A program made the position numbers and the translations under genes. From assembly GCA_039920285.1 (NCBI GenBank), contig JBDSDX010000001.1, forward strand, positions 630,001 to 662,000: a stretch of DNA of 32,000 nt. The letters are read 5' to 3'. This DNA comes from Candidatus Saccharimonadota bacterium. GTDB taxonomy: Bacteria > Patescibacteriota > Saccharimonadia > Saccharimonadales > Saccharimonadaceae. Every line of letters starts with the position of its first letter. Within the stretch, counting starts at the first letter, position 1. The notes under the pieces are model-generated. The model saw nothing but the letters and a program-made list of their open reading frames with translations. It was not told the origin of the DNA and made no database searches. This document shows, piece by piece, positions 1,919 to 16,163 of the stretch.

Positions 1919-2005
1919 CAGCGAAGTAGAAGTAAACCCAGAAGATTCATGGTCCATAAAGTGTCGTGAATCTTATTTAATACTGATGTATTTAGGAATT
2001 AAAAT

Positions 2006-2038
2006 AGCCCTACTCGGGCAAAACCGGTAGGGCTTTTT
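2006..2038. terminator. Intrinsic terminator hairpin, probably bidirectional
   Basis: AGCCCTAC-t-CGG / CCG-GTAGGGCT stem followed by TTTTT on the + strand and preceded by an A-rich run (T-run on the - strand). Confidence 0.6.
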
Positions 2039-2082
2039 GGCTTACTTCAAGGGTATAACACCGCGCTTGAAGTAAGTGGGTT

Positions 2083-2113
2083 GGGGTGCACCGGTAGAAA
2101 ACCGATGCACCCC
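2083..2113 (-). terminator. Stem-loop 25 nt downstream of the flotillin stop
   Basis: GGGGTGCA-c-CGGT / ACCG-a-TGCACCCC, 12 paired bases. There is no clear U-run, so its function as a terminator is tentative. Confidence 0.35.
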
Positions 2114-2138
2114 AACAACACTATGTGATACTCGTGCG

Positions 2139-4064
2139 TTAGCTCTTCTTGCGAGAACGCGACTTGCCGGCCTTTAGACCAGCGTCGAGCAGCTCACCAG
2201 GTGTGAACCTGCGACCAAGCAGGCCTTCTAGGGCCGAGATGTCGACACCGAAACGCTCAGCAATGTCAGTTGCCGAAACGCCACTTTCGGTTGCCTCCGC
2301 CAGTGCCTGTTCAAGCGTTGCACGATCGAGCGACGAATCCACTTCAGCCACCACAGGGGCGGCTGATTCTTGTGCTTCGACGAATGTCGAAGGTGCGGTT
2401 GCTGTCGGCTCGACAGGAGATGCCGGTTCGACAATCGGCTGCACAACGGCTACCGACGCAGACACAGGCATCTCGCTGGTGGGCGAGGGACTGGTCACTG
2501 TCGAAACAGGTGTCGGCGACTCGACGGCGACGGAAGTCGCAGCCGGAACATCAGACACCTTGCCGCCGTTTCGGATAGCAGCGAGAGTCGCCCCGAGCGC
2601 TCCACCTATGGTGGAATCGAGGAGACCTTCGCTCCGAACATCGATCTTCGCCAACAAATCGGGTAGGTTACCGAGTACTCTGGAGACCAAGTCTCCGTTG
2701 TCACCGTTTGCCCCACCCATGTCGACGAATCGTGCATTCTTGCCGACTTCTGCCATCACCTGTCCGACGTTCGTCGAAATGGTGATACGAGCATGAGCCT
2801 CGACTTCTGCCAGCGCCACCGTAAGGTTAGCGCCGCCTTCTGCCGCCAGTGCCTGAGCCATCAGGAGCTGAGCATTCGCCTCGGCTTCACCGAGAGCCTG
2901 CTTTGCGGCAGCCTCCGCTTCACCTTGCGCCCGAGCCACTTCAGCTGCAGCCAGACCCGTCTCACGGGTCTGGTGTGCACGTGCTTCAGTGGTGCGGTTG
3001 ATCGCGTCGGCTTCACCTTGCGCCCGAATAGTCGCGGCGTCGGCGTCGGCTTGCGCCGTCCGCCTCGTCACTTCCGCAGACGCGTCAGCTTCAATCTCTA
3101 GCTTCCTCTGAGCAGTCTCCGCTTCAGTCACCTCGACATCACGTCGGGCAGTTGCTGCAGCTTGACGCTGCTGCTCCTTGATGACAGCTACGGCACCCTC
3201 TCGGGTTGCGAGCTCCTGATTACGAAGCTCTGTTTGGAGTTGGCCAGCGATGTTCGCATCGGCTTGGGCTAGATCTGTCTCCGCTCTCACGGCTGCTTCT
3301 CGCAGAGTGACTTCACGAGCCTGTTCGACGACCGCCAGGTCGCGCTTTTGTTCCGCAGCCTTGGAGGCGTTGTCAGCCTCGGCAGCGCGGATTGCGATGC
3401 TTTGGTCGGCGTCAGCCTTGAGGTTGGCAGCAGTTGTGCGCTTCTCCTCACGATCCTTCGCCGACAGGTGGTCGTAGTACTCGTTGGGATCGGTGATCTT
3501 ACCGATATTGAGCGAGACTAGCTTGAAGCCCAGGTCAGCCATGCTATCCCGGACACCAGTGTTGACCTTCTCGGCGAAACCGGCCTTATCACGGACCAGG
3601 TCTTCCGGGGTGAGCGTCGCAATGACAGCACGCACTTCTCCCTCCAGCGTCTGCTGAAGAGAGTCTGCGATCTTACCCTCGTAGTTGGTAAAACCGAGGA
3701 TGGCATTGCGAAGCGACTCATTGAGATTGCCGTTCTCGTCTTTCGACGTGTCGGCACGTAGCTGTGCAGTCCACTCAACGATCACGTTGACCATAGTGGT
3801 TGTCTGCGTCGCTTCGTTGGTCGACGTCACCGTCATCAGACCAAGATCAAAGAACTCGGCCTTACGGAATGGTGGTACGAAAGCACCACCACCCACTCGA
3901 ATAAGTGGGTCGCCCTTGCCGCCGGTGATCACGATCGCCTGGTTGGCGTCCGCAATCTTGTAGCGTGCACGAACATAGACCATGGTGACAATTGCCACGA
4001 TGACCACGATAGGAATAGCCATGATCCAACCGATGCTGGAAAGAAAGCTGAAGAAATCGTTCAA
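2139..4064 (-). CDS. Flotillin-like SPFH/band-7 protein with extended C-terminus
   Basis: 641 aa. TTG start with AAAGG 8 nt upstream. It has an N-terminal hydrophobic hairpin, an SPFH core (AIVITGGKG, FFDLGLMTV, VIVEWTAQLR), and a long Ala/Glu/Arg coiled coil with RAQGEA repeats. These are followed by a Pro/Thr/Ser/Val-rich linker and a ~70-aa tail. Confidence 0.85.
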   Translation of the reverse strand: MNDFFSFLSSIGWIMAIPIVVIVAIVTMVYVRARYKIADANQAIVITGGKGDPLIRVGGGAFVPPFRKAEFFDLGLMTVTSTNEATQTTTMVNVIVEWTAQLRADTSKDENGNLNESLRNAILGFTNYEGKIADSLQQTLEGEVRAVIATLTPEDLVRDKAGFAEKVNTGVRDSMADLGFKLVSLNIGKITDPNEYYDHLSAKDREEKRTTAANLKADADQSIAIRAAEADNASKAAEQKRDLAVVEQAREVTLREAAVRAETDLAQADANIAGQLQTELRNQELATREGAVAVIKEQQRQAAATARRDVEVTEAETAQRKLEIEADASAEVTRRTAQADADAATIRAQGEADAINRTTEARAHQTRETGLAAAEVARAQGEAEAAAKQALGEAEANAQLLMAQALAAEGGANLTVALAEVEAHARITISTNVGQVMAEVGKNARFVDMGGANGDNGDLVSRVLGNLPDLLAKIDVRSEGLLDSTIGGALGATLAAIRNGGKVSDVPAATSVAVESPTPVSTVTSPSPTSEMPVSASVAVVQPIVEPASPVEPTATAPSTFVEAQESAAPVVAEVDSSLDRATLEQALAEATESGVSATDIAERFGVDISALEGLLGRRFTPGELLDAGLKAGKSRSRKKS

Positions 4065-4285
4065 GGGTCTAGCCTTTCATTTGGAGGAACTAACTGCGGA
4101 CGCAGATAGTCACATAGTGCTGAATTGTGAGGTTCGCTGCGTCCCACCTACAGTAGTATTATTTTAGACTATAATTGTGAAAAAGTCAAGCAACTCTACA
4201 CTGGTCAGCATACAACACACCACATATTGAAAAATATGCAATTTAAGTGCATAATAATTGAGCAATTGCACCCCGAGATGGAAGG

Positions 4286-5212
4286 ATGGATGCAATGACA
4301 ATCGGATGGGTACTAGGAGTCATCGGCGCGATTATCGTGCTGTGGATTATCTGGGGAATCGTAAACCACACCGTCATCAAGCCGAGACGTCGCAGACTGC
4401 GACATGAGGCATGGCAGTTACAAGAGCGCACCGAGTGGCTCGACAAGTTCGCGACACTGAACACGGACGAGAAACTCGCCTGGATGCACAAACCAGACGA
4501 GCGCTGGGCGAATGCTGAGACCGCCGCCGCGGTTGAAGCAATTAATGAGGCTGAGGTCCGAGAAGAGGCCCGAATCCTTGCCGAACGCACAGGTGAAGCG
4601 ACGCAGTTCTACGCCAAACTACGTCTACTCACCGACGTTCGAGAGCGCTGGGCACTGCTCAAGGATGCACCGGAAGGTCCGGAATACGTCGATGACGGTG
4701 AGACAAGCCTGAACGACTACTGGAAAATGGGGATGAAGCAGTATGCCAAGCTCCTCCTTGATGAGGTCCGCAGCGGTAACGCTGCAAGCTTCTTCGAGCT
4801 TTCTGATCTGGTCTTTGCTGACCAGTACGACGATAACAGCTACCGGTACATTGTCGGGAAGAAGTTCAACGTTCCAAAAGACTGGGACGAGCTAGTAACG
4901 ACGTTCTTCAAGAATCCATCGGTCAAGCAGTTCTGTAACCAGCGGGACTACGCTCCGAACGAGATTCTGCTGGTAGCCACTGAGGCTCTCCGCACCCACT
5001 CGTTTATCGCAGCCAAGCATGTACTGGCATACAGCATGGTTTCCGACGAGCACAACTCGGGTTACGGCTCGAGTCGACACTCGCAGAGGTACTGGCCGTA
5101 CCGCGATGCGATCGGCGAGCTTCTACTCACCGAGTTGGCAGCGATGGTGGATAGCGTGCACGTAACGCGTGGACTGTTCCAGCACGAAGTGGCAACAACC
5201 GTCGTCGAGTAA
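4286..5212 (+). CDS. Hypothetical membrane-anchored protein
   Basis: 308 aa. One N-terminal TM helix (IGWVLGVIGAIIVLWIIWGIV) followed by KPRRRR. I recognise nothing in the rest of the protein. ATG 4295 has better SD spacing (GGAAGG). It is followed by two hairpins. Confidence 0.6.
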   Translation: MDAMTIGWVLGVIGAIIVLWIIWGIVNHTVIKPRRRRLRHEAWQLQERTEWLDKFATLNTDEKLAWMHKPDERWANAETAAAVEAINEAEVREEARILAERTGEATQFYAKLRLLTDVRERWALLKDAPEGPEYVDDGETSLNDYWKMGMKQYAKLLLDEVRSGNAASFFELSDLVFADQYDDNSYRYIVGKKFNVPKDWDELVTTFFKNPSVKQFCNQRDYAPNEILLVATEALRTHSFIAAKHVLAYSMVSDEHNSGYGSSRHSQRYWPYRDAIGELLLTELAAMVDSVHVTRGLFQHEVATTVVE

Positions 5213-5227
5213 TCCTCGATCATTAGA

Positions 5228-5263
5228 GAGGGTGACCGAGAGCTAACACTCTCGGTCACCCTC
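5228..5263 (+). other. Perfect 15-bp stem-loop
   Basis: GAGGGTGACCGAGAG (5228-5242), 6-nt loop, CTCTCGGTCACCCTC (5249-5263). It lies 16 nt after the stop of the 4286-5212 gene. Confidence 0.6.
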
Positions 5264-5267
5264 CAAC

Positions 5268-5290
5268 AACACCTTCGGGTGTTATTTTTA
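5268..5290 (+). terminator. Canonical intrinsic terminator
   Basis: AACACC-TTCG-GGTGTT stem-loop (UUCG tetraloop) followed by ATTTTTA. Confidence 0.65.
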
Positions 5291-5332
5291 TACCAAATGA
5301 GACCCAATTGGGTCTCATTTCTATAATAATTT

Positions 5333-5366
5333 TGGCTGAGTGTCTGGGTCTAGAACCTACTCTCTG
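5333..5366 (-). repeat. Degenerate tRNA 3'-end copy A (B-type)
   Basis: The reverse complement ends ...GGTTCTAGACCCAGACACTCAGCCA, against copy B ...GGTTCGAATCCCTCCCTCTCAGCCA (16/25 identical). The flank ATAATAATTTTGGCTG is 15/16 identical to the flank of copy C. A GAGACCC-N4-GGGTCTC hairpin sits beside it at 5295-5320. Confidence 0.5.
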
Positions 5367-5438
5367 ACAATACTCTTCTTATACTCATCAGCCAGCGTAT
5401 AGATCGATATATCTTCAAGTTTCATATACACTAATTAC

Positions 5439-5978
5439 ATGAATGTCAAAAAGATAATCATATTTCATGGAACCGATGGTAATCCGCAAGCATGCTGGTA
5501 TCCTTGGTTGCGCAACAAACTTGAGGCTCGAGGCTACCAGGTTTCAGTTCCTTATTTTCCAGAGATGAACAAAGAGCCGATCGATACATTTATCAAAAAG
5601 GTCCTAACCGCCCATACAATCGATGGGGAAACGGTACTTATAGGCCATTCCGGTGGTGCTGCGCTGGTTCTTAGTGTATTAGAGCATATTCAGGTGCAAG
5701 TACCCCAAGCTATGCTAGTGGCCGGCTACTCAACTCGGCCAAATGAGAGTGAAGAACCCGTCTTGCAACCTACCTACGACTGGAGAAAGATGCGCAACAA
5801 TGTCCGTGATATATATATAATAAATTCAGTTAATGACCCTTATGGATGCGATGAAAAACAAGGTCGAGTACTCTTTGATAATTTAGGTGGAACGCAAATC
5901 GTTTGTGACGAAGGTCATTTTGGTGATTTTGATCAACACTACCCGACCTTTGATCTGCTTGAAAAATTAATCAATTAG
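5439..5978 (+). CDS. YdeN/RBBP9-type alpha/beta serine hydrolase
   Basis: 179 aa. Motifs: IIIFHGTDGNP..WYPWL, nucleophile elbow GHSGGA, and a late NDPY and GHF. The family assignment is from motif memory. Confidence 0.7.
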   Translation: MNVKKIIIFHGTDGNPQACWYPWLRNKLEARGYQVSVPYFPEMNKEPIDTFIKKVLTAHTIDGETVLIGHSGGAALVLSVLEHIQVQVPQAMLVAGYSTRPNESEEPVLQPTYDWRKMRNNVRDIYIINSVNDPYGCDEKQGRVLFDNLGGTQIVCDEGHFGDFDQHYPTFDLLEKLIN

Positions 5979-6099
5979 GATATGGGCCGGGATGTGAGTA
6001 TTCATCTTAATCACTAATCCAGGACAGAGTAAACGTATTACCTTGCGGTACATAAAAGCAATTGAGACCCATACGGGTCTCAATTCTATGTGTCGCATC

Positions 6100-6133
6100 T
6101 GGCTGAGAGGGAGGGATTCGAACCCCCGAATGC
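6100..6133 (-). repeat. tRNA-Gln-type 3'-end fragment B (CCA, acceptor strand, T arm, start of variable loop)
   Basis: TGGCTGAGAGGGAGGGATTCGAACCCCCGAATGC is 32/34 identical to 8593-8626 of the intact tRNA-Gln. Both differences are in the acceptor strand. There is no 5' half. The homology ends within the stop codon of the adjacent ORF. Confidence 0.85.
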
Positions 6134-7293
6134 TATTTAGTTACGCGAAATCCTACTAATGTACTCGTCAATGTGGGTGAATACCCGAGGGTCAATCGAT
6201 ACAGCCCAGCATAGGCAGCGTCATCCATATATCCACCTCTTATAAAACCTCTTAAAGAAAGATCATCGCTATTAGACTGGATATGTCCAATGCCGTTCGT
6301 AGGAGAAGTTAGTGTTGCTGCTATTGCATTCGCATATGCTGGATTAGGATTTGGGGATACAGTACCTAGATTTGGTAAAGAGTTCCATTGGCGCCAGTTG
6401 TTGCCTGAGCCTCCAGGTTGTCCACCAGTGGTTTGACCACTTGTCCATTCCCACACATTTCCTATCAGATCCCATATAACATTGCCATTACTGAGAGTGA
6501 GCGTCCGCCGCTGAGTTCCACTTACATTACCAGTATTTGCATAGCCATTAGCATCGCTTACGTCTGCAACAATTGCTGTCGTTGGACTATTGTCGTTGTG
6601 CCCTGAGTATATATATCCGCTTCCTACTATTCCGCTCGACCAGTTGCTACTCACATTAAAGATATTCTGTGTAATGGTTAGCCATTCTGCTTCGGTAATC
6701 AAGTGACACCCGCTACACGCGGCTGACGACGCCGTCGTTACGTCTGATTGCGTCACAGACACCCATGGCGTTCCCGTTGCTTGGCTCGTGGCAATGCCAC
6801 CCACGTTCTTTGCTTCATATTTCATTACACAAAAAGCTTGAGTGCCATACAGACTCGAGCCAGGAACGACAATATAATTCGTTGGGCATGACGAGCCGTT
6901 ATCAAGTGTCGTAGGCGATACTCCAGTATGCCCTGGGCACGGTCCGAGTACTATCGAACCATTATTTGCAATATGTGCACTCACACTGTTAATTGTTGCA
7001 GTTACACAATAATTATTCGGTGAAACAGCCGTATTAAGTATGTACTGATAGGTTGTTGCGTCATTCGTGACCCCAGCGGCACCAAGTGTTGATGGAAATT
7101 GGTCATTATTTAGTTGTGTATAAGCAATAATTTTTCGACTTGCCTGCGCGACACCAGTAGTGACTGCTGCTCTATTCGCTTTATTCTGAATACCAGTAAA
7201 CGAAACTATTGTAATAGCGGCAAGTATACCAATGACAACAATGACAATAAGCAACTCAACGATCGTAAATCCTCTTTGCTTATTGACTTTCAT
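6133..7293 (-). CDS. Type IV prepilin-like N-terminus fused to an FGE-sulfatase/SUMF1-like domain
   Basis: 386 aa. KQRG|FTIVELLIVIVVIGILAAI is the prepilin cleavage/methylation motif (Gly-1, Phe+1, Glu+5). The C-terminal ~230 aa carry FGE-sulfatase family signatures: HLITEAEW, GNVWEWTSG, RGG, GFRV. SD AAGGGG lies upstream. Confidence 0.8.
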   Translation of the reverse strand: MKVNKQRGFTIVELLIVIVVIGILAAITIVSFTGIQNKANRAAVTTGVAQASRKIIAYTQLNNDQFPSTLGAAGVTNDATTYQYILNTAVSPNNYCVTATINSVSAHIANNGSIVLGPCPGHTGVSPTTLDNGSSCPTNYIVVPGSSLYGTQAFCVMKYEAKNVGGIATSQATGTPWVSVTQSDVTTASSAACSGCHLITEAEWLTITQNIFNVSSNWSSGIVGSGYIYSGHNDNSPTTAIVADVSDANGYANTGNVSGTQRRTLTLSNGNVIWDLIGNVWEWTSGQTTGGQPGGSGNNWRQWNSLPNLGTVSPNPNPAYANAIAATLTSPTNGIGHIQSNSDDLSLRGFIRGGYMDDAAYAGLYRLTLGYSPTLTSTLVGFRVTK

Positions 7294-7365
7294 ACTTATT
7301 GTTGCCCCTTTGTTCCCATGATAGCAAAAAAAGACGATTACTCGTCATTTTAAACATAATAATCT

Positions 7366-7389
7366 TGGCTGGGATGGAGGGATTCGAAC
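7366..7389 (-). repeat. tRNA-Gln 3'-end fragment C
   Basis: TGGCTGGGATGGAGGGATTCGAAC is 24/24 identical to 8593-8616. Homology is then lost. The 5' T-stem strand is absent, so it cannot fold as a tRNA. Confidence 0.85.
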
Positions 7390-7406
7390 ATACCCGTACA
7401 GATGAT

Positions 7407-7892
7407 CTAAACCCATCTTCGAATTGATTGTCTGTATTGGGTGTATGATTTCCCGAAAGCTACTTCAAGCTTTTTCTCTTCATATGGAATGACGATAAAG
7501 TTTAGAACAAGAAAATAAACGACTGGGCCGATGAACGCGGCTAGCGAACCTACTAAAGTCGCCACCCCAACTATGAGAGTAAGTTCAGCGAGATAAAGTG
7601 GGTTGCGGCTTACGGAAAAGAATTTACTTGTAATTAGTTGCTCTGATGTTTTAACGACGTCCGTCGAGCCTCCGCGGCGTATCATAAATACCAGTATAGC
7701 AACACTACACCCTATTCCTCCGATAATTAGCATGGCACCCAAAATGGAATTGACGGCTGCTGGAAAAACTTGAGGTCCAGGAATCAACTTACCTAGAAGT
7801 AGCGCACCCATGATGGTACTCAAAAGTGTTAGATCAGGTAGTGCATTTATTAACTTATCTTTCATAGCTTTCTCGTAGTATACCAGTTTCAC
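7407..7892 (-). CDS. Isoprenylcysteine carboxyl / phospholipid methyltransferase family membrane protein
   Basis: 161 aa and multi-TM. It has the SRNPLYLAEL motif and a C-terminal EEKKLEVAFGKSYTQYRQSIRRWV, which fits the ICMT/PEMT family pattern RNPxY ... EExxL..FG..Y..Y. The track start is GTG; ATG 7865 is an alternative. Confidence 0.7.
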   Translation of the reverse strand: MKLVYYEKAMKDKLINALPDLTLLSTIMGALLLGKLIPGPQVFPAAVNSILGAMLIIGGIGCSVAILVFMIRRGGSTDVVKTSEQLITSKFFSVSRNPLYLAELTLIVGVATLVGSLAAFIGPVVYFLVLNFIVIPYEEKKLEVAFGKSYTQYRQSIRRWV

Positions 7893-8066
7893 GACACCCA
7901 GATGAGCACGTAATCATACCATGCAAGATACACCCCAATTAGGATCAATACATCTTATTAGGGTAAGCCAATACTGACATCACCTTCGATAAGTATATTT
8001 TTAATTCTTTAATCATACCAAAAACAAATAGACTCCACGAATGAAGTCTATTTATATAAATAATCT

Positions 8067-8095
8067 TGGCTGGGGAGATGGTTCTGGAATAGAAC
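8067..8095 (-). repeat. Degenerate tRNA 3'-end copy D
   Basis: AATAATCTTGGCTGGG (8061-8076) is 16/16 identical to the flank plus acceptor of copy C. The T-arm region is decayed (GATGGTTCTGGAATAGAAC). An 8-bp hairpin, AATAGACT/AGTCTATT, sits beside it. Confidence 0.5.
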
Positions 8096-8271
8096 TTTTG
8101 ACGAAGAGATAAAACAAGAAAGATTTTGCGTCTACTACTCAAGAAATTCGTGAATTATTAGATAAGACCACTTCCGATGTGTTACTTACGAGCTGAACCT
8201 ATGTATCATATAGTATACTGCCCTTAGCAGTGACCCCTCATTTCTCAGAAGCTAACATAATTCAACCTTAC

Positions 8272-8568
8272 CTAGCGCTGATACTCTTCTATTACATCGA
8301 CGCTGCCACCATAGGGAATATTCGGACTCTTTTTTGCAATCTCAACTGCAGCATCAAGCGACTCAGCTTCAACCATAGATGCGCCTCGAAAGTTGCCACT
8401 ATAATCGGCTATTCCATCAGAAGAAACAACTTTCCCCGTAGAGCCTTTAAGACCGTATTGTTCGTGAAGATTAGTACTCCAGATACGCCATGCCTGGCGA
8501 TTCTCCTGAACTCTGTCAGATGGTATTGGGTCTGGGCCCGATCGGTATATAAAGATATATGATCTCAT
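8272..8568 (-). CDS. YciI/DGPF-like small protein
   Basis: 98 aa. The pattern MRSYIFIY...W..W...L...G...V...GASMVEAESLDAAVEIAKKSP...GGSVDV resembles YCII-related domain proteins. It starts 25 nt after the tRNA-Gln 3' end. Confidence 0.55.
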   Translation of the reverse strand: MRSYIFIYRSGPDPIPSDRVQENRQAWRIWSTNLHEQYGLKGSTGKVVSSDGIADYSGNFRGASMVEAESLDAAVEIAKKSPNIPYGGSVDVIEEYQR

Positions 8569-8574
8569 ATAATG

Positions 8575-8583
8575 ATTATAGCA
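8575..8583 (-). promoter_or_regulatory. Extended -10 TGCTATAAT, 6 nt from ATG 8568
   Basis: The reverse strand reads TGCTATAAT-cattat-ATG. This spacing implies a leaderless transcript. Confidence 0.45.
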
Positions 8584-8592
8584 TAGGATTCT

Positions 8593-8667
8593 TGGCTGGG
8601 ATGGAGGGATTCGAACCCCCGAATGCTGGTACCAGAAACCAGTGCCTTACCACTTGGCGACATCCCA
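8593..8667 (-). tRNA. tRNA-Gln (anticodon CUG)
   Basis: Manual cloverleaf: TGGGATG-TC-GCCA-AGTGGTAA-GGCA-CTGGT-TTCTGGT-ACCAG-CATTC-GGGGG-TTCGAAT-CCCTC-CATCCCA-G-CCA. It has a U1:A72 pair, discriminator G and an encoded CCA. It closely parallels E. coli tRNA-Gln. Confidence 0.92.
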
Positions 8668-8690: not shown

Positions 8691-9956
8691 CTAAGGGGTT
8701 AACGTATCGACATTCTCGACGACGGATTTTTTGACGTCGGCTGTTTCAAGCTGACGATTCGCCAAGAACAAGAAGGGAATCGCAAAGAGTTGGATGATTC
8801 CAGCCACCGCATACGAGGTTGCATAACCGTGTATATCAGCGACCTTACCGAGCCCTGGTTGGCTCACCACGCCGCCACTTGAACCAAGTAGTGAATCGAA
8901 CGACAAGACGGTCGCACGTTGTTTACTGGGGATGAGGTCATTCAGATATGCTTGGCGGACCGGCATCACCGAAGCACCGATAAGCCCCCAGAGCACGACC
9001 ATTAAAATAACGAGATAGAAGTTCGGCATGAAGTAGAGTGCGATTAATATAAAGGCGCTGAGTGTTGTGCCGATGAGTAAAATTGATGTCCTCTTTTTAA
9101 ACAGACGACGAATAGTCGGAACTAATAGGCCGCCAACGATCTGCGCACCGGCTACAACTGCCGCAGCGAGTCCAGCGATCCAATAGGCCTTTTCATCGCC
9201 ATAAAGATTCAGAAGATATGGCTGAAGCGCATAGAATACATATATACTGACGCCCGAAATAAACGGCGCAGCGATCATCACCCAACGAACAGCTGGTTTT
9301 CCGAAACCATACTTCACCGATGTGACCAAGATACCTTTAATAGCTTTTGAATATTTCACACCTTTTTCAGGTGAGAAGCCGAGGTCTTTCATAAAAAGGA
9401 ATGCGACAATAAAGGTCACGACGAGAAGCCCAGCTCGAACAATATAGGGGACACCGAGGTTGCTAAACTGAGCAATCAACCCACCACCAACCGAACCGAG
9501 CAACATCGCGATGCCACCAACAACTTGGGCTTTACCGAAAACAGTATCGAGTTGGCCTTTATATTTGGTAAATTTGAGTGCATCCACAAGCCAGGCGTCG
9601 GTTGCGCCTGAAAAAAATGTAAACCCAAGCCCTAAAAAGAGTGAAACTACCGCCCAGAGCGCAAATGGTGCATGGGTCCAAGCGAGAACGAGATACAGGA
9701 ACGTCGTGATAGCCAGCGTCAACGTACCGAGCAAGTACGACAGACGACGACCTTTTGCATCCGCAACGACCCCTGTTGGAATTTCAAATAGGACCATTCC
9801 GACAGTAAAAAATGCGTTGGCCGCAAAGGCCTCAACGATGCTTAATCCTGCGTCGAGTAAGAACAATGTGTTGATACCCCAAATGAGTGAGGCGGCCAAT
9901 GTATTGAAGAGATTAAGCGTTAAATACGTACGAATTATCGTTTTAGAGGTCGACAT
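8691..9956 (-). CDS. MFS transporter
   Basis: About 12 hydrophobic helices and MFS motif A (GVVADAKGRR). I prefer ATG 9956 (MSTSKTII..., 421 aa) to the track start at 10037, which overlaps the divergent gene. TATACT lies 6 nt upstream of 9956. Confidence 0.85.
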   Translation of the reverse strand: MSTSKTIIRTYLTLNLFNTLAASLIWGINTLFLLDAGLSIVEAFAANAFFTVGMVLFEIPTGVVADAKGRRLSYLLGTLTLAITTFLYLVLAWTHAPFALWAVVSLFLGLGFTFFSGATDAWLVDALKFTKYKGQLDTVFGKAQVVGGIAMLLGSVGGGLIAQFSNLGVPYIVRAGLLVVTFIVAFLFMKDLGFSPEKGVKYSKAIKGILVTSVKYGFGKPAVRWVMIAAPFISGVSIYVFYALQPYLLNLYGDEKAYWIAGLAAAVVAGAQIVGGLLVPTIRRLFKKRTSILLIGTTLSAFILIALYFMPNFYLVILMVVLWGLIGASVMPVRQAYLNDLIPSKQRATVLSFDSLLGSSGGVVSQPGLGKVADIHGYATSYAVAGIIQLFAIPFLFLANRQLETADVKKSVVENVDTLTP

Positions 9957-9978
9957 AGCACCAGTATAGCGCAGACCT

Positions 9979-9987
9979 TGGTATAAT
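9979..9987 (+). promoter_or_regulatory. Extended -10 TGGTATAAT, 6 nt from ATG 9994
   Basis: TGGTATAAT-ggactg-ATG. The divergent MFS gene has TATACT (9963-9968, - strand), also 6 nt from its ATG. Confidence 0.45.
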
Positions 9988-9993
9988 GGACTG

Positions 9994-11295
9994 ATGCGTA
10001 AAAAAGATCTCCCCACCGTTACTGTGACTCTCGACAAAATTGTTGGAGGTGGTCAGGCAATGGGGACCATGGAAGATGGTAGAAAACTCTTTGTTTGGGG
10101 TGGCTTGCCTAGCGAAACCGTCGAAGTACAACTCACTAAAAAGAAATCGAAACTTGCTGAGGGCTACGTCACCTCTGTAACCAAAGCCAGCAAAGAACGT
10201 GTGGAACCACGCGACGAAGAAAGTTACATTTCCACCAGTCCATGGCAAATTATGTCGCTCGAAAGTGAACAAATCTATAAAGCAGCACTTATTAAAGAAG
10301 CCTTCGCTCTCCACGACATTACGTTACCAAACGATGTCACACTATTTACTGACGGCAAAGACTATGAATATCGCAACAAGGTTGAGTTTAGCTGGTGGGT
10401 TGATGCCGAAACGCGTTATCTCGACCTCGCTTTCTTCCGCCGTGGCACCCATGGCAAGATTCCTATTCAGGATACGTCACTTGCACACCCAGCCATCAAC
10501 GAAGCTGGTCAAGCCATTCGCGATCTTTTGATCAAAAAAGGTATCAGCGGCTTCGACCTGAAGACACTGTTGGTCCGTTGTGACGCAAACGGAAATGTTG
10601 TTGCACAACTATATGTAAAGACCGAAGAATTCCGTCGTCCCTCAGATCAAGATCTTGAAGCATTGCCGATTAAAGGCTTTGAACTCATCTTTAGTAATCC
10701 AAAAAGTCCTGCCAGCGTCATTACGAAGCGACTATTTAGCTGGGGAGAGACGACCTTATCTGACACGATTTTGAACGTACCATTTACCTACGCGACTGAA
10801 GGTTTCTTCCAGATCAACCTACCTGTCTACAGCCAAGCCCTCACTGACATGAAGGAATGGGTCACACCAGGGAAGCCTGTTATCGACTTATATAGTGGTG
10901 TCGGCACTATCGGTCTTACTATCGGTGGCGACAACGTTACGCTCGTCGAGCTCAACGAATCGGCGGTGCGTGAAATGAAAGAAAATATTACCTCACTCAA
11001 ACGCGACGCTACCGCCAAAGCAATCCTTGCAGCCAGCGAAAAAGCACTCGAATATATTCACAGTACCGACCTTGTCATCGTTGACCCGCCGCGTGCTGGC
11101 CTCCACCAAGATGTCATCGTACAATTACTGGCTGAGCTGCCTGAGCGAATTATTTACTTATCATGCAACCCTGTCACACAAGCTCGTGACATCATGTTGC
11201 TCGCAGAGAAGTATGAGATTAAACATCACCAAGGCTACAACTTCTTCCCACGCACTCCACATATCGAACATCTCGTTATTTTAGATAAAAAATAA
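9994..11295 (+). CDS. TrmA/RumA-family RNA (uracil-5)-methyltransferase
   Basis: 433 aa. N-terminal TRAM-like region, SAM-fold motifs DLYSGVGTIGL and VDPPRAGL, and catalytic Cys motif YLSCNP. It lacks the RumA Fe-S cysteines. Confidence 0.85.
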   Translation: MRKKDLPTVTVTLDKIVGGGQAMGTMEDGRKLFVWGGLPSETVEVQLTKKKSKLAEGYVTSVTKASKERVEPRDEESYISTSPWQIMSLESEQIYKAALIKEAFALHDITLPNDVTLFTDGKDYEYRNKVEFSWWVDAETRYLDLAFFRRGTHGKIPIQDTSLAHPAINEAGQAIRDLLIKKGISGFDLKTLLVRCDANGNVVAQLYVKTEEFRRPSDQDLEALPIKGFELIFSNPKSPASVITKRLFSWGETTLSDTILNVPFTYATEGFFQINLPVYSQALTDMKEWVTPGKPVIDLYSGVGTIGLTIGGDNVTLVELNESAVREMKENITSLKRDATAKAILAASEKALEYIHSTDLVIVDPPRAGLHQDVIVQLLAELPERIIYLSCNPVTQARDIMLLAEKYEIKHHQGYNFFPRTPHIEHLVILDKK

Positions 11296-13250: not shown

Positions 13251-14924
13251 ATGCGCAAGCTGAGATGGGGCTTTACTTTAGTAGAATTGATTGTCGTAAT
13301 CGCGACTATAGGTATCTTAGCGACAATTGCCGTCATCGGTTTATCTCGTTATCAAGCAGACACGCGCGACGCCCGTCGCGCGTCAAGCATTTCTGTCATT
13401 TCTGAAGCACTTGAAAAATATTATGACAACAACGGAGAATACCCGAGTTGTTCATCAATCAAGAGCTCGGCAACAACAGTTGTCACCTCAACCCTCGTTG
13501 GTATCGACAAAACCGCCCTTGTTGCACCTCAAGCCGATACAACACCGAGTGCAAATTCACTTCAATGTACCAGTGATGGAGCATTATTAACCGCCAATGG
13601 GACGGATTTCTTTGAATACACCGGAGATAACAGTGTCGCCTGTAATACCAACATCTCATGTCTTCAGTACACGCTGAAATACAAAGAAGAAGCTACAGGA
13701 GCTGTTAAAACAGTGACAAGTCGTCGCAATACATCGATTTCTACTTCTGGTGCCTCGACACTCTCAGCTTCAAACATCAGCTTTGCGAGTGTCGACTTAT
13801 CCTGGACTGATGTGAGTAACGCGACGAAGTATACACTCCAGCAAAGTACAAACGCCAGCTTCCCTCAAGATGTGTCGACCATAACGACCGCAGATATCAA
13901 CGGCACATCACAGTCAGTCAGTGGTTTGACTTCAAATACATCATACTTCTTCAGAGTCCGTTCGGATGCAGTCGGAAGTACTGGAAATTGGTCAAATACA
14001 CTTCCCGTCACAACACTTCTCTTATCAAACCCGACAGGGTGTGTTGCAACTGCCAACTCAAGCTCTCAAATCACCGCGAACTGTAATACAGTAGCCAATG
14101 CCTCAACCTACGACGTCCGCTATTCATTGGACAGCACCTTTGGTTCAGGTGTAACGTCATTTACAGGACTGGCGAGCCCTACGAAAGTGGTCACTGGACT
14201 CGCAGTGGGAACTCAGTACTTCTTCCAAATGCGGGCCGTCGCTCCAACCGTCACTGGTTCATGGTCATCTACCTTTAACGCCACGACAATCGTTCCTGTA
14301 CCTACCTGTACAGCCTCGACCGTCAACTCTAATACCCAAATCACGGTTAGTTGGAACACGGTAGCTGTTGCGACGAGCTATACATTGCAATACGCCACAA
14401 ACTCTGGGTTTACTGGTGCAACAACTGTTAGCGGTATCGTTACCACCAGTAAAGCCATACCTGGGCTCAACAATGGCACAACGTATTACTTCAAAGTTGC
14501 CGCGCTCAACGGCTCTACCTCAAGTTTGTACGGTGCCTGTCCGTCTGCAACAACAGGAGTAAACGGTCCAAGTAGTGTTGGCTGGTCTGCCGAAGCCTAC
14601 ATGGTGCGTGCCCGTGCTGGCCTTCCATGGATGCCTGGCGCTGACCCTGGATATGGCTCAACATTCTACACAAACGGTATGTATATTACCGGAACCTGCT
14701 CACCAGGTGCAACAGTTGTAACGAGACTGTACTCATACTATGCATACTCGAATAACACGTCACCAAATAATGCGACTCTCATGGACTGGACATGGGGCAC
14801 GCAAGACCGCTACGTCGTTGGGGGAAGTGGTAGCTGGCAGGTCTGGTGGCAAGGATGGGTTGCTTGTCAGGTTGGAGGCACTCGTGCGGGAGATACATAT
14901 CTAGGAAATGCGGGGCCATACTAA
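13251..14924 (+). CDS. Type IV prepilin-like N-terminus fused to three fibronectin-III-like repeats and a Trp-rich C-terminal domain
   Basis: 557 aa. RWG|FTLVELIVVIATIGILATIAV is a prepilin motif with Glu+5. Three ~87-aa repeats (aa ~168-435, nt 13752-14555) each show SW(T/N)..V..A(T/S)(K/S)Y.(L)Q ... L...T.YFF(R/Q/K)V.A ... S. The C-terminus is rich in W/G/Y. Confidence 0.8.
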   Translation: MRKLRWGFTLVELIVVIATIGILATIAVIGLSRYQADTRDARRASSISVISEALEKYYDNNGEYPSCSSIKSSATTVVTSTLVGIDKTALVAPQADTTPSANSLQCTSDGALLTANGTDFFEYTGDNSVACNTNISCLQYTLKYKEEATGAVKTVTSRRNTSISTSGASTLSASNISFASVDLSWTDVSNATKYTLQQSTNASFPQDVSTITTADINGTSQSVSGLTSNTSYFFRVRSDAVGSTGNWSNTLPVTTLLLSNPTGCVATANSSSQITANCNTVANASTYDVRYSLDSTFGSGVTSFTGLASPTKVVTGLAVGTQYFFQMRAVAPTVTGSWSSTFNATTIVPVPTCTASTVNSNTQITVSWNTVAVATSYTLQYATNSGFTGATTVSGIVTTSKAIPGLNNGTTYYFKVAALNGSTSSLYGACPSATTGVNGPSSVGWSAEAYMVRARAGLPWMPGADPGYGSTFYTNGMYITGTCSPGATVVTRLYSYYAYSNNTSPNNATLMDWTWGTQDRYVVGGSGSWQVWWQGWVACQVGGTRAGDTYLGNAGPY

Positions 14925-15577: not shown

Positions 15578-16075
15578 TTAGCTAGTTTTAATACGTCGAT
15601 ACGTGAATTTGGTACTTTGGCGCCATTCACCAGTACTATCACTATCATATTGATACAAAATACCATTCTTTACTTCTGAAATAAGGATGAGTGCCGGGCT
15701 ATACGGCGTCAATGTTCGATAAAAGATAATATCTTCGTGGTTAATATGGCTTCGTCCAGGAAATACTTCACGAAACTTCGCAGTACCGACTTCATCGAAG
15801 TAGTGAGGACGGCCTTTCGGTGGCATGTAAAGTTCGGCTTTGAGACCAACGCGTGAGACTATTTTTTGAACATCAGATAAAAGCAACTTCGACTGACTCG
15901 AAACATACAGAAAGAGTTGTTTCTTTTTTGTCAGAAAGAGTGTCGCTTCGGCGGTACGGCTGACAGGAAAACGGCGACCAATAACGGCATCAATGTCAAT
16001 ATCAACACCAAACTGACTTTTTGCAATCTTCTCCAGCGCAAAGTCGTCGTAGACTTGTTCATTCATGTCTGTCAT
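15578..16075 (-). CDS. Hypothetical protein
   Basis: I prefer ATG 16075 (MTDMNEQVY..., 165 aa), which has SD AGGGGTGG upstream. The longer track start at 16195 would run through the divergent promoter and the helicase start. I recognise no family. Confidence 0.55.
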   Translation of the reverse strand: MTDMNEQVYDDFALEKIAKSQFGVDIDIDAVIGRRFPVSRTAEATLFLTKKKQLFLYVSSQSKLLLSDVQKIVSRVGLKAELYMPPKGRPHYFDEVGTAKFREVFPGRSHINHEDIIFYRTLTPYSPALILISEVKNGILYQYDSDSTGEWRQSTKFTYRRIKTS

Positions 16076-16147
16076 TGTACCACCCCTGATACCCTTGAAC
16101 AAACTAAGAAGTAGGATATAATCAGCAAATTCATGAGCCGACAGGGG

Positions 16148-16156
16148 TGTTATAAT
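16148..16156 (+). promoter_or_regulatory. Extended -10 TGTTATAAT, 7 nt from ATG 16164
   Basis: TGTTATAAT-aagatta-ATG. A second candidate promoter, TTGAAC-16-TATAAT, lies at 16095-16122. Confidence 0.4.
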
Positions 16157-16163
16157 AAGATTA

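Follow-up and report, generated by a model that had tools for sequence, protein, structure and literature searches.

We find that the window analysed here (the whole stretch of 32,000 nucleotides) carries an intact tRNA-Gln(CUG) gene followed, downstream on its own strand, by four copies of its 3' end, all in one (direct) orientation and delimiting four intervals with a single gene each. This array probably arose by tandem accretion, that is, by repeated site-specific integration into the tRNA-Gln gene, leaving integrase-less mini-islets akin to cis-mobilizable elements (CIMEs).

Four downstream copies of the tRNA-Gln 3' end

ARAGORN and Rfam both called a sole tRNA-Gln(CTG) gene, and alignment placed the four co-oriented 3'-end copies downstream of it, in agreement with the earlier note on this DNA. 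The tRNA gene, the copies and the terminators behind them are as follows.

8593..8667, minus strand: intact tRNA-Gln(CUG), CCA encoded (ARAGORN; Rfam tRNA, 61.4 bits)
8057..8095, minus strand: copy D, flank AATAATCTT and tRNA 3' end TGGCTGGG, with an exact 16-mer common to copy C
8024..8055, minus strand: terminator hairpin of copy D, 14 bp then a T run (fold z=-5.5)
7356..7389, minus strand: copy C with flank ATAATAATCT, 24/24 against the tRNA 3' end from T loop to CCA
7333..7346, minus strand: terminator hairpin of copy C, 5 bp then T7 (weak fold)
6100..6134, minus strand: copy B, 33/35 against the tRNA 3' end from variable loop to CCA
6060..6099, minus strand: spacer GTGTCGCATC and terminator hairpin of copy B (flank comparison, folding)
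5323..5359, minus strand: copy A, flank ATAATAATTT, next TGGCTGAG, then a diverged body (local alignment)
5295..5320, minus strand: palindromic terminator hairpin of copy A, homologous to the B hairpin (84%) and to the native hairpin of L010

The 24-mer TGGCTGGGATGGAGGGATTCGAAC is present at three sites in the window (8593; 7366 with 0 mismatches; 6100 with 2 mismatches) and had 0 occurrences in 100 shuffles, which confirms copy C as 24/24; the tRNA core was not found elsewhere in the 32 kb. Copy B is near-identical to the tRNA from variable loop to CCA as claimed, its extent being 33/35 over 6100-6134 where 32/34 had been given. Copies D and C do share the exact 16-mer AATAATCTTGGCTGGG (16/16), and D reaches a local score of 16, one above the best of 100 shuffled 4-kb controls (15). 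Copy A scores just 14-16 against C, which is borderline, and 23 against B with the hairpin included (null maximum 16); its identity to B, put at 16/25 previously, is 18/25. The tRNA body alone detects neither A nor D (scores of at most 11, null 95th percentile 12), so that their tRNA homology consists of the last 8-11 nt and the flank. Their earlier description as decayed copies is thus an interpretation, which holds in that both exceed the shuffled controls once the flank (for A also the hairpin) is counted. D is supported only by the common flank together with the final 8-11 tRNA nucleotides; the same applies to A, which has in addition a hairpin homologous to that of B. Beyond flank and 3' end, D is a non-tRNA stretch with a 5-bp hairpin (GUUCU/AGAAC) at the T-arm position. 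An independent Logan contig (L171) matches window positions 6556-8619 with 100% identity, covering C and D. The flank motif also has one chance-level match inside a gene at 31307.

All four copies share a module overlooked in the earlier note, namely about 10 nt followed by a terminator hairpin on the minus strand. Other Saccharibacteria tRNA-Gln genes examined likewise continue with about 10 nt and then a terminator hairpin; the intact tRNA-Gln of the window differs, and flank comparison and folding revealed no terminator hairpin and no stable fold 3' of it. Native-type flanks lie behind the displaced copies. In the closest relative, L010, the intact tRNA-Gln is followed by a flank that agrees with the B spacer region at 22/22 positions and by a hairpin homologous to that of B, the two stems differing by two compensated changes. 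Compared with L010, the tRNA body is thus separated from a native-type 3' end by about 2.5 kb. The D terminator is similar to those that natively follow tRNA-Gln in L057 and L178, and the flank TTTTAAACATAA at the C terminator to the native L057 flank. Copy A is 22/27 identical to the distal tRNA fragment of L010, their flanks being unrelated. The tRNA bodies of the window and L178 are identical save three compensated acceptor base pairs.

Each unit holds one complete gene

The start-to-start spacings of 526, 701, 1266 and 767 bp were correctly given before, as was the presence of one ORF of unrelated function per interval. Each interval has one complete gene with Pfam support (YCII, PEMT/ICMT, N_methyl pilin plus FGE-sulfatase, Ser_hydrolase), and the order on the minus strand is tRNA, YCII, D, ICMT, C, pilin, B, serine hydrolase, A.

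8272..8568, minus strand: unit 1, YCII-domain protein, 98 aa (Pfam PF03795, E=4e-5)
7407..7892, minus strand: unit 2, PEMT/ICMT-family membrane methyltransferase (Pfam PF04191, NCBIfam)
6133..7293, minus strand: unit 3, type IV pilin (N_methyl) fused to an FGE-sulfatase-like domain, 386 aa (Pfam, NCBIfam)
5439..5978, plus strand: unit 4, serine hydrolase PF06821, 179 aa (Pfam)

The YCII gene starts 25 nt past the tRNA, with TATAAT 7 nt 5' of its ATG. The methyltransferase, annotated by NCBI in a 152-aa form from M10 (P0001, 100% identical), has its stop codon 18 nt from copy C. The stop codon of the pilin-FGE gene (6133-6135) overlaps the end of the B homology by 2 nt; the overlap claimed for this stop is real to that extent, and homologues show the C-terminus to be natural (GFRVTK* against GFRVAR* and GFRVSR*). 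The serine hydrolase gene is inverted relative to the other three. GC3 of the cassette genes (0.35-0.39) is below that of core genes (0.40-0.49).

The same site is hypervariable in related genomes

The array lies between two conserved boundaries.

4286-5212, plus strand: hypothetical gene, 308 aa, NCBI locus tag ABIP50_03410, conserved left boundary (4286..5292 with terminators)
5228-5263 and 5268-5283: two terminators of the 308-aa boundary gene, within the left boundary 4286..5292
8691..10037, minus strand: MFS transporter, conserved right boundary (Pfam, synteny with relatives)

The MFS transporter ends 24 nt from the tRNA-Gln 5' end, an order common to the window, L178 and L091-L096, and the 308-aa gene with both its terminators also borders the arrays of L069 and L178. 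Comparison of syntenic loci, which had been proposed as a check, found the site to be hypervariable: between the gene at 4286-5212 and tRNA-Gln lie unrelated genes in each genome, four in the window, five in L178 and one (an NYN gene) in L069, and the intervals of L178 and L069, both Saccharimonadales, likewise contain tRNA-Gln fragments. L092-L096 have MFS, tRNA-Gln and terminator free of insertions (L092 seen over a short stretch only), and L091 has one short, doubtful tRNA fragment.

About 9 of the 30 tRNA-Gln loci examined contain tRNA-Gln fragments, some of them flanking single defence genes: in L172 an OLD-family gene has a tRNA-Gln fragment on either side, and the L010 array carries Shedu SduA and two further genes. 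Exactly one complete gene is found in 7 of 8 gene-bearing units (five genomes). Near-empty units, seen for instance in L072, L080 and L027, measure 41-220 nt (L027, L069, L072, L080, L172). The fragments fall into length classes of about 8-11, 17-24, 34-35 and 50-60 nt. Such classes are expected, being those usually seen when elements integrate into tRNA genes, and a sublocation concept for them is cited in PMC3146451. We saw no att-flanked cassette shared by two sites, and the ICMT homologues examined in context (62-68% identity) have surroundings without tRNA fragments.

Integrases adjoin the same tRNA in viral contigs

No integrase, transposase or phage family was found by Pfam and PHROGs in the scanned ORFs of at least about 100 aa in the window, and tblastn of the window with two tRNA-Gln-associated integrases gave no match, in line with the absence of recombinases from the 32 kb reported before. 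Among the best 120 matches of an integrase profile search none came from the source contig (795 kb), and the approximately nine arrays yielded neither an intact or fragmentary integrase nor any other mobility gene. In viral contigs, tyrosine integrases of about 298-300 aa adjoin the same tRNA-Gln sequence; they are Xer-like, and Pfam shows just SAM-like and catalytic domains in them. Viral contig L009 has an intact tRNA with flank AATAATATCTTGG, like the C and D flanks. L003 has a 34-nt tRNA fragment with its junction where B has it, a position also found in L002, and the L003 integrase gene sits where the pilin gene adjoins the junction in the window.

Discussion

The attB site is carried by the tRNA-Gln(CUG) gene at 8593..8667, and these observations support the earlier view of the repeats as att-type scars of integration at the tRNA-Gln 3' end. 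Under tandem accretion, the tRNA-Gln gene would be an integration hotspot of Saccharimonadales, into whose 3' part small DNA elements would successively recombine by a tyrosine-integrase type of reaction. Each incoming element would supply its own tRNA 3' end, short spacer and terminator, so the tRNA gene would be rebuilt, and at each insertion the older 3' end and terminator would be displaced downstream; the newest unit would then adjoin the tRNA. The units would be att-flanked, integrase-less islets of the CIME kind, which either were small originally or were trimmed to the useful gene by strong deletion pressure (genome of about 0.8 Mb). That an integrase acted at the junctions of this array, and that the units arrived in this sequence and then decayed, is inferred from the arrangement of the locus.

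Several results count against accretion. Mobility-gene debris is absent from the arrays, where random decay should sometimes leave some; complete single genes are the rule; the natural pilin stop falls exactly at a junction; and no cassette in att-flanked form was met twice. The derived bases common to copy A and the L010 distal fragment are not predicted by simple neutral decay. The displaced flanks and terminators resemble native tRNA-Gln flanks of other Saccharibacteria lineages, which accretion explains only if elements are assumed to copy host flanks.

Some of these features speak for an alternative that we consider unlikely, in which the units are functional miniature cassettes consisting of a gene, a tRNA-mimicking site of about 25-35 bp and a terminator. 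They would be excised as circles and inserted at tRNA-Gln by a recombinase acting in trans, either a host enzyme or a short tyrosine integrase of Xer-like type borne by a phage or element, with a logic like that of pdif modules or integron cassettes. Across five genomes, units of 0.5-2.2 kb repeatedly carry a single complete gene and no recombinase debris, the gene stop lies 0-35 nt from the junction, and the start module of tRNA 3' end, spacer of about 10 nt and terminator is constant. The tRNA-associated viral-contig integrases (about 298 aa) are Xer-like, and with just two kinds of Pfam domain simple core sites may suffice for them. A-type fragments of two genomes carry the same derived bases although their flanks are unrelated, and D retains a hairpin at the T-arm position, both resembling conserved recombinase-binding half-sites. 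Against this, neither a circular junction nor a second site with an identical or near-identical cassette came to light, att flanks are absent around the ICMT homologues examined in context, and the near-empty units look decayed rather than cassette-like. Junction positions in at least three classes also make one dedicated enzyme unlikely.

We hold a recombinase-free build-up to be improbable. Saccharibacteria import DNA by means of a type IV pilus, and DNA of another lineage with its tRNA-Gln, terminator and neighbour gene could be inserted by tRNA-anchored homologous recombination with an illegitimate far join, or by exchange of whole arrays between fragments. This would fit the displaced flanks and terminators that look native elsewhere (B and A to L010; C and D to L057 and L178), the tRNA body that matches L178 save for the three compensated acceptor pairs, hinting at patchwise replacement, and the finding of no array with a recombinase. 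However, all copies are co-oriented and each keeps the tRNA 3' part only, junctions recur at T loop, variable loop and 3' end in independent genomes, which is a signature of site-specific recombination, one-sided homology-facilitated insertion does not naturally duplicate the 3' end of its anchor, and integrases using the same tRNA-Gln sequence exist. That there is no biological array (the repeats being chance similarities, members of a scattered terminator- or REP-like family, or products of misassembly), as the weakness of A and D against the tRNA body alone and the chance-level flank-motif match at 31307 might suggest, is already contradicted and hardly credible given the 0 matches of C and B in 100 shuffles, scores of D and A above every shuffled control with flank and hairpin counted, the core's absence from the rest of the 32 kb, the exact match of 6556-8619 in an independent assembly, and syntenic arrays in other genomes.

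Tandem accretion also has precedents. In Dehalococcoides, many direct repeats of the ssrA 3' end delimit strain-variable tandem islands (McMurdie et al. 2011, PMC3146451), 15 of which have no module for integration and were suggested to be cis-mobilizable elements (PMC3146451). The window resembles these in its small genome, its one small-RNA gene and its tandem units between 3'-end repeats. Those islands have a tmRNA target, a 20-bp repeat, many serine-recombinase modules and multi-gene islands of kilobases (PMC3146451), whereas the window has a tRNA-Gln target, no recombinase and units of 0.5-1.3 kb with one gene and a terminator of their own. CIMEs are documented decay products of ICEs or IMEs that move with a conjugative partner (ICESt1 family; PMC5704250). 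The window shares with them integrase-less att-flanked units in tandem at a tRNA gene, but no parent element or decay debris was seen at its locus. To our knowledge, Saccharibacteria have no conjugative elements. In the tRNA islands of Prochlorococcus, which are shaped by tycheposons, newer elements push older ones inward, and the islands contain dispersed pieces of tRNA genes as well as degenerate remnants (Hackl et al., bioRxiv 10.1101/2020.12.28.424599); there too a streamlined genome with few classical mobile elements has islands at specific tRNA genes. Tycheposons bring their own tyrosine or serine recombinase, a replication module and cargo of up to 10 kb or more (10.1101/2020.12.28.424599), while the window showed neither a recombinase nor a replication gene, and its partial tRNAs enclose one gene each.

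Integron arrays are similar in their mostly single-gene, recombinase-free units with a site-like repeat near the stop codon. An integron reading is not supported: the 32 kb yielded no intI, attI or Pc, the repeat consists of a tRNA 3' end and not of a structured attC-type site, and one gene, the serine hydrolase, is inverted. Each unit moreover opens with a terminator, so that its gene, unlike those of integron cassettes, needs its own promoter. The pdif (XerC/D) modules of Acinetobacter plasmids are likewise small and recombinase-free, with short simple tyrosine-recombinase sites, and presumably move in trans. Their sites, dif-like 28-mers, alternate in orientation and lie on plasmids, whereas the window has chromosomal direct repeats derived from a tRNA gene.

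The earlier note had favoured a cassette array over a classical island and had called the arrangement unusual. Nothing found separates the locus from classical tRNA-targeted integration, and integrase-less tandem att-flanked units have been described already (CIMEs, Dehalococcoides, Prochlorococcus). On the accretion reading, the locus would represent a known island-building process, here on a miniature scale, with units that are unusually small, free of integrases and found again in related genomes.

The tRNA-Gln 3' end recurs in a repeat series

As in a classical tRNA-integrated island, one end of the array is marked by an intact tRNA gene, the tRNA-Gln(CTG) at 8593-8667 (minus strand), which is the sole tRNA in the window, and the far boundary by direct repeats of its 3' end, copies D, C, B and A, all in one orientation. 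Copy C (7366-7389) is an exact recurrence of the 24 nt from the tRNA T loop to CCA (core repeat TGGCTGGGATGGAGGGATTCGAAC), and copy B carries the core at 6100-6123 with 2 mismatches and an extended identity of 33/35. The 24-nt core had no match in any shuffled control. The repeat spacings reported in the earlier note are correct, each interval does hold one gene, and the stop codon of the pilin gene does overlap the B homology, the pilin C-terminus being natural.

Copies D and A, which the earlier note took for decayed tRNA copies, were scored by local alignment against shuffled 4-kb controls. D reached 16 (null maximum 15) and A, taken with hairpin, flank and fragment, reached 23 (null maximum 16), so that both are genuine members of the repeat series; they exceed the controls only with the flank and, for A, also the hairpin. 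Against the tRNA body alone neither rises above chance in these controls, and the part of the claim that derives them from the tRNA by decay is not proven. Half of the exact 16-mer common to D and C is flank (8 nt), and the tRNA contributes no more than its last 8 nt; A (A-type site TGGCTGRGNNNNTGGGTCTAGWACC) has in common with B the flank, TGGCTGAG and a hairpin of 26 nt with 84% identity. Positions 6556-8619 of the window recur without any change in an independent Logan assembly, and therefore C and D are not assembly artefacts; an exact-protein look-up located the ICMT and RumA proteins only, on short Logan contigs identical to the window. Recombination of the ICMT unit is predicted to leave a deletion junction in which CATTTTAAACATAATAATCTTGGCTGGG is joined to GAGATGGTTCTGGAATAGAAC and a circle junction in which CTATTTATATAAATAATCTTGGCTGGG is joined to ATGGAGGGATTCGAACATACCCGTACAG.

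We rejected the idea that the repeats are tRNA-like processing signals, since C is unstructured and only B keeps the T arm. Copy D (8074-8095, minus strand) has lost T-arm sequence similarity, yet a 5-bp stem-loop (GUUCU AUUCC AGAAC) stands at the equivalent position. The intact tRNA-Gln(CUG) and its orthologue beside the MFS gene of the syntenic contig L178 (15470-15544) are identical in the D, anticodon and T arms and differ in the acceptor stem at three consecutive pairs, all compensated (GGGATG/CATCCC in the window, GGGGAT/ATCCCC in L178); the 3' strand of the altered pairs lies within the integration-swapped segment and the 5' strand outside it.

Each repeat copy is followed by its own terminator

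Beyond each copy, on the tRNA strand, come an A+T-rich spacer of about 10 nt and a hairpin with a T run, a feature absent from the earlier note:

Terminator-like hairpins 3' of the repeat copies
5295-5320, tRNA strand (minus), hairpin and T run after copy A
6060-6085, tRNA strand (minus), hairpin and T run after copy B
7333-7346, tRNA strand (minus), hairpin and T run after copy C
8024-8055, tRNA strand (minus), hairpin and T run after copy D

A unit may therefore be read as a tRNA 3' end, a spacer, a terminator, one gene and a junction. The hairpins are unrelated in sequence except those of A and B. Among the Saccharibacteria tRNA-Gln genes that we collected, most have a terminator hairpin starting within about 10 nt of CCA; the window's intact tRNA-Gln is an exception with no hairpin, the YCII gene beginning 25 nt 3' of the tRNA. 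Units measure 0.5-1.3 kb in the window and 0.6-2.2 kb in relatives, nearly all with one complete gene, and 0-35 nt separate stop codon from junction. Non-coding spacers in the window array do not exceed 180 nt; we saw no pseudogene debris in this array and no integrase debris in any array examined.

The gap between tRNA and YCII (8568-8592) contains no terminator and no obvious Shine-Dalgarno sequence, and TATAAT lies 7 nt upstream of the ATG. Taken with the 25-nt distance, this suggests that the YCII gene is either co-transcribed with the tRNA or read from a leaderless mRNA. At the opposite edge, a stretch of only 93 nt (5228-5320) holds three consecutive hairpins: the 308-aa hypothetical gene has two of them as its terminators, conserved in the syntenic contigs L069 and L178, and the third, a perfect palindrome, belongs to copy A.

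The array lies among housekeeping genes and encodes no detectable integrase

The remaining genes of the window are housekeeping genes (acetate kinase, DEAD helicase, AddA-type helicase-nuclease, Dus and the F1Fo ATP synthase operon). The window belongs to a genome of Saccharibacteria, order Saccharimonadales. Its ICMT and 308-aa proteins have matches of 100% identity in NCBI, from a Candidatus Saccharimonadales bacterium MAG; both are encoded there on a contig of 795,370 nt, the 308-aa gene as ABIP50_03410. The 80 best relatives of the RumA-like gene, the nearest 85% identical at the protein level, come almost all from Saccharibacteria MAGs, with a few generic labels and one Dongiaceae label.

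Pfam and PHROGs searches of the larger ORFs matched no integrase, transposase or phage family, and tblastn with two tRNA-Gln-associated integrases likewise revealed no recombinase in the 32 kb, in agreement with the earlier note; by these searches, the array differs from classical islands in having no element-encoded integrase by an att end. An integrase profile search returned none from the source contig among the best 120 of 962 matches. In IMG/VR, we found no relatives of the YCII, ICMT and hydrolase proteins, one distant match of the pilin cassette protein, and no parent element carrying the cassette genes. A defence role for the four cassette genes was rejected, PADLOC giving no match to any of them. 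Homologues of ICMT in L172, L176 and L177 (other contigs compared) lie inside long runs of small accessory genes with no adjacent att fragments, contexts that lend no support to the ICMT cassette moving as a unit.

Left of the array, the flotillin/SPFH gene (2139-4064) and the 308-aa gene (4286-5212, plus strand) have a GC content of 0.55-0.59 and GC3 of 0.60-0.67; GC3 of the core genes around 2000-5212 is 0.40-0.49. An island reaching leftward into the high-GC segment 2000-5200 was rejected because L069 and L178 keep the 308-aa gene as their boundary. Its family is rare, with 6 clusters in 5.8 billion proteins (E<=1e-10). A 205-aa ORF on the minus strand (15578-16195) overlaps the start of the AddA-type helicase gene; its match to LAGLIDADG_3 is weak (E=0.003) and falls short of the Pfam threshold, and PHROGs and NCBIfam gave no match.

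Relatives carry empty or differently filled sites

L010, the closest relative, has GATGCGACACATAGAAATGAGACCC and then GGGTCTCATTT after its intact tRNA-Gln(CTG). The region beyond copy B matches this native flank 22/22 over the spacer, with a homologous hairpin that has two compensated stem changes. Compared with L010, about 2.5 kb (YCII, ICMT and pilin) thus separates the tRNA body from a native-type 3' end and terminator. Five metagenomic relatives with MFS-tRNA-Gln order (L092-L096) have the tRNA and then its terminator with no fragment detected, L092 having been checked over about 300 nt only, and a sixth (L091) has one doubtful short fragment. The insertion is accordingly absent from L010 and L092-L096, and L178 and L069 have different content. 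In L091-L096, from soil metagenomes, short tRNA-like pieces occur about 40-100 nt beyond the native terminator of tRNA-Gln(TTG), for example GGCTCGAACCCCCGAA, which is inverted, and GTTCGAATCCCTCATCC in L091.

The left edge is kept in two other genomes, in which the 308-aa gene is followed by both terminators. L069 has a RumA 58% identical to that of the window, and in L178 the MFS protein is 81% and the 308-aa protein 63% identical. Their gene orders are as follows:

Order of features in the two syntenic loci
L069: 308-aa homologue, both terminators, 21-nt tRNA-Gln fragment, 170-aa NYN-domain gene, second 20-nt fragment, about 120 nt, intact tRNA-Gln(TTG), RumA
L178: 308-aa homologue, terminators, fn3 protein, CPT-like protein, heliorhodopsin, HIT, short fragment (TGGCTAGGGA, 17/18 with flank), 177-aa gene, tRNA-Gln(CTG), MFS

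Between the 308-aa gene and tRNA-Gln, not one gene is common to the window, L069 and L178. The locus is thus variable between relatives, in line with the reading of the earlier note, as L178 and L069 carry different genes within the same boundaries. Similar arrangements were found elsewhere. L172 has fragments of 23 nt and 9 nt on either side of a 569-aa OLD-family ATPase-TOPRIM gene (PADLOC Old, 2e-25), and a copy of the native terminator comes after the 9-nt one. L010 has a distal fragment that Shedu SduA and two small genes separate from the tRNA. Contigs L072 and L080 have in common a homologous non-coding unit of about 190 nt, bordered on one side by the tRNA and on the other by a displaced fragment of 17-19 nt that has its own terminator. 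In L027, a fragment of 19 nt lies 41 nt away from the tRNA. In total, about 9 of some 30 tRNA-Gln loci with enough downstream sequence have fragments, and no integrase was detected in these by tblastn with the two integrases, which matched only viral contigs and two unrelated loci, or by Pfam on the array genes.

Several of the fragment-bounded units in relatives hold stand-alone defence-type genes (Shedu SduA, L010 4602-5930; OLD-family, L172 1883-3592; NYN nuclease, L069 8378-8890), and the heliorhodopsin gene of L178 (13314-14075) lies within the variable interval from the 308-aa gene to tRNA-Gln. The unit of about 190 nt beside tRNA-Gln(TTG) in L072 (~5690-5850) and L080 (~4480-4640) has TCAAATCTYYTGATTTGTACA and, further on, TAGCTGATGATG in common and could be a miniature element or a small RNA gene. 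The distal fragments of the window (5333-5359), L010 (3482-3508) and L178 (~14853-14878) are closer to each other than to the tRNA; window copy A and the L010 fragment are 22/27 identical, with common GGGTCTAG(A/T)ACCTA and both flanks unrelated. Such A-type fragments could represent a conserved recombinase half-site instead of neutral decay. Two metagenome contigs with an MFS homologue (L154 7165-11149 and L156 13828-17811) have a dense array of about 25 tRNA genes in 4 kb.

Viral integrases lie at the same tRNA-Gln sequence

The 24-mer is present in eight IMG/VR contigs. L009, of which L005 is nearly a duplicate, has an intact tRNA-Gln, and the end of a 298-aa tyrosine integrase lies about 120 nt from the tRNA 3' end; the L009 flank (ATTAATAATATCTTGG) is much like those of A, C and D. 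In L003 (and L002), a 34-nt fragment and a terminator come after a 299-aa integrase, with the junction at the same position as in B, and L004, L006 and L007 have 50-60-nt fragments. The L009-type and L003-type integrases are only 28% identical to each other, and Pfam recognises in both only a catalytic domain and a SAM-like N-terminal one. When all loci are taken together, the fragments form length groups of about 8-11, 17-24, 34-35 and 50-60 nt. These match the 3' end, the T loop, the variable loop and the anticodon region, which are classical sublocations of tRNA/tmRNA integration (concept cited in PMC3146451).

The flank motif AATAATN{0,3}CTTGGCTGGG had 79 matches in viral contigs, and only those in L005 and L009 run on into tRNA-Gln; the others were set aside as chance. 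Motif ATAGGATTCTTGGCTGGG had no match in viral contigs. Among deposited phages, the L009 integrase found only distant integrases (tblastn, at most 29% identity), and the array matched only phage tRNA-Gln genes (blastn).

Origin of the array

The geometry of the repeats, the displacement of the native flank, the behaviour of the site as a hotspot and the presence of integrases at the same sequence point to one process, successive site-specific integration into tRNA-Gln. Each integration would rebuild the tRNA-Gln gene and displace older 3' ends outward. We consider it probable that the units had an integrase-dependent origin and decayed to integrase-less islets under strong deletion bias in a genome of about 0.8 Mb; near-empty units of 41-220 nt and the several junction classes favour such decay. 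The recurrence of single complete genes, the common derived bases of copy A and the L010 fragment (22/27 between unrelated flanks) and the 5-bp hairpin of D in the place of the T arm would instead favour intrinsically minimal cassettes moved in trans, a somewhat unlikely alternative. We regard as unlikely its extension to a Saccharimonadales-wide pool of miniature recombinase-free cassettes moving in and out at tRNA-Gln through a trans-acting short Xer-like tyrosine recombinase, in which a cassette may consist of one gene, often for defence or surface functions, behind a tRNA-Gln 3'-end mimic and a terminator. If true, this would amount to integron-like gene capture with the tRNA gene as attI and the tRNA kept intact. 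Recombinase-independent exchange by transformation and recombination would account for displaced flanks that resemble the native flanks of other lineages but leaves the fixed junction classes unexplained, and we hold it to be improbable. Chance or artefact is hardly credible given the controls and the independent assembly.

Comparison with known systems

We classify the array as an accretion hotspot at tRNA-Gln in Saccharimonadales, with units that are single-gene and free of an integrase. Compared with classical tRNA-integrated islands, it has the att-related features but not the integrase. The descriptive definition of cis-mobilizable elements (CIMEs), flanked by attL/attR and without integration and transfer genes (PMC5704250), applies, as the array has attL/attR-type flanking repeats and no such genes. 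CIMEs and accretion are known in streptococci (PMC5704250); tandem ssrA islands of Dehalococcoides include 15 without an integration module, proposed to be cis-mobilizable (PMC3146451); and tRNA islands of Prochlorococcus contain stacked elements, partial tRNAs and remnants (bioRxiv 10.1101/2020.12.28.424599). The process itself is already known from such examples. What is unusual is the miniature, clean units, mostly one complete gene with its own terminator module and no integrase debris.

Like tycheposons, the array involves integration at a tRNA with partial tRNA copies left; unlike them, it has no tyrosine or large serine recombinase of its own and no replication module of the usual kind that we could find in the window. 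The features of an integron are lacking: no tyrosine recombinase that could represent intI with attI and Pc was found in the 32 kb; the repeat is a tRNA 3' end with adjacent terminator-like hairpins and T runs, not attC; and in place of promoterless cassettes in one orientation, the units start with a terminator and the serine hydrolase is inverted. Modules of the pdif/Xer type have dif-like XerC/D sites in inverse orientation, whereas the sites here are direct repeats of tRNA origin. The earlier view of a cassette array more than a classical island is partly supported: no integrase was found in the window and the units are single genes, but the att-related features of islands are present and the three integron features compared are absent. 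Full-text searches of incomplete coverage, judged by title and abstract, gave no published description of such a tRNA-integration hotspot in Saccharibacteria.

Significance

The genomes of Saccharibacteria, like those of other CPR bacteria, measure about 1 Mb. To our knowledge, few mobile elements have been described in CPR, and their gain of accessory and defence genes is poorly understood. Flanked by two conserved genes, the tRNA-Gln 3' end is a defined and recurrent point of entry at which single genes turn over between lineages; those seen there include pilin, membrane methyltransferase, Shedu, OLD-family nuclease, NYN nuclease and heliorhodopsin. If the units are only scars, they would be the CPR counterpart of the Prochlorococcus tRNA islands and the Dehalococcoides ssrA islands. 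If they are mobilised in trans, they would constitute a new minimal gene-capture system, and genetic tools for cultivable Saccharibacteria would gain a ready-made integration site that restores the tRNA.
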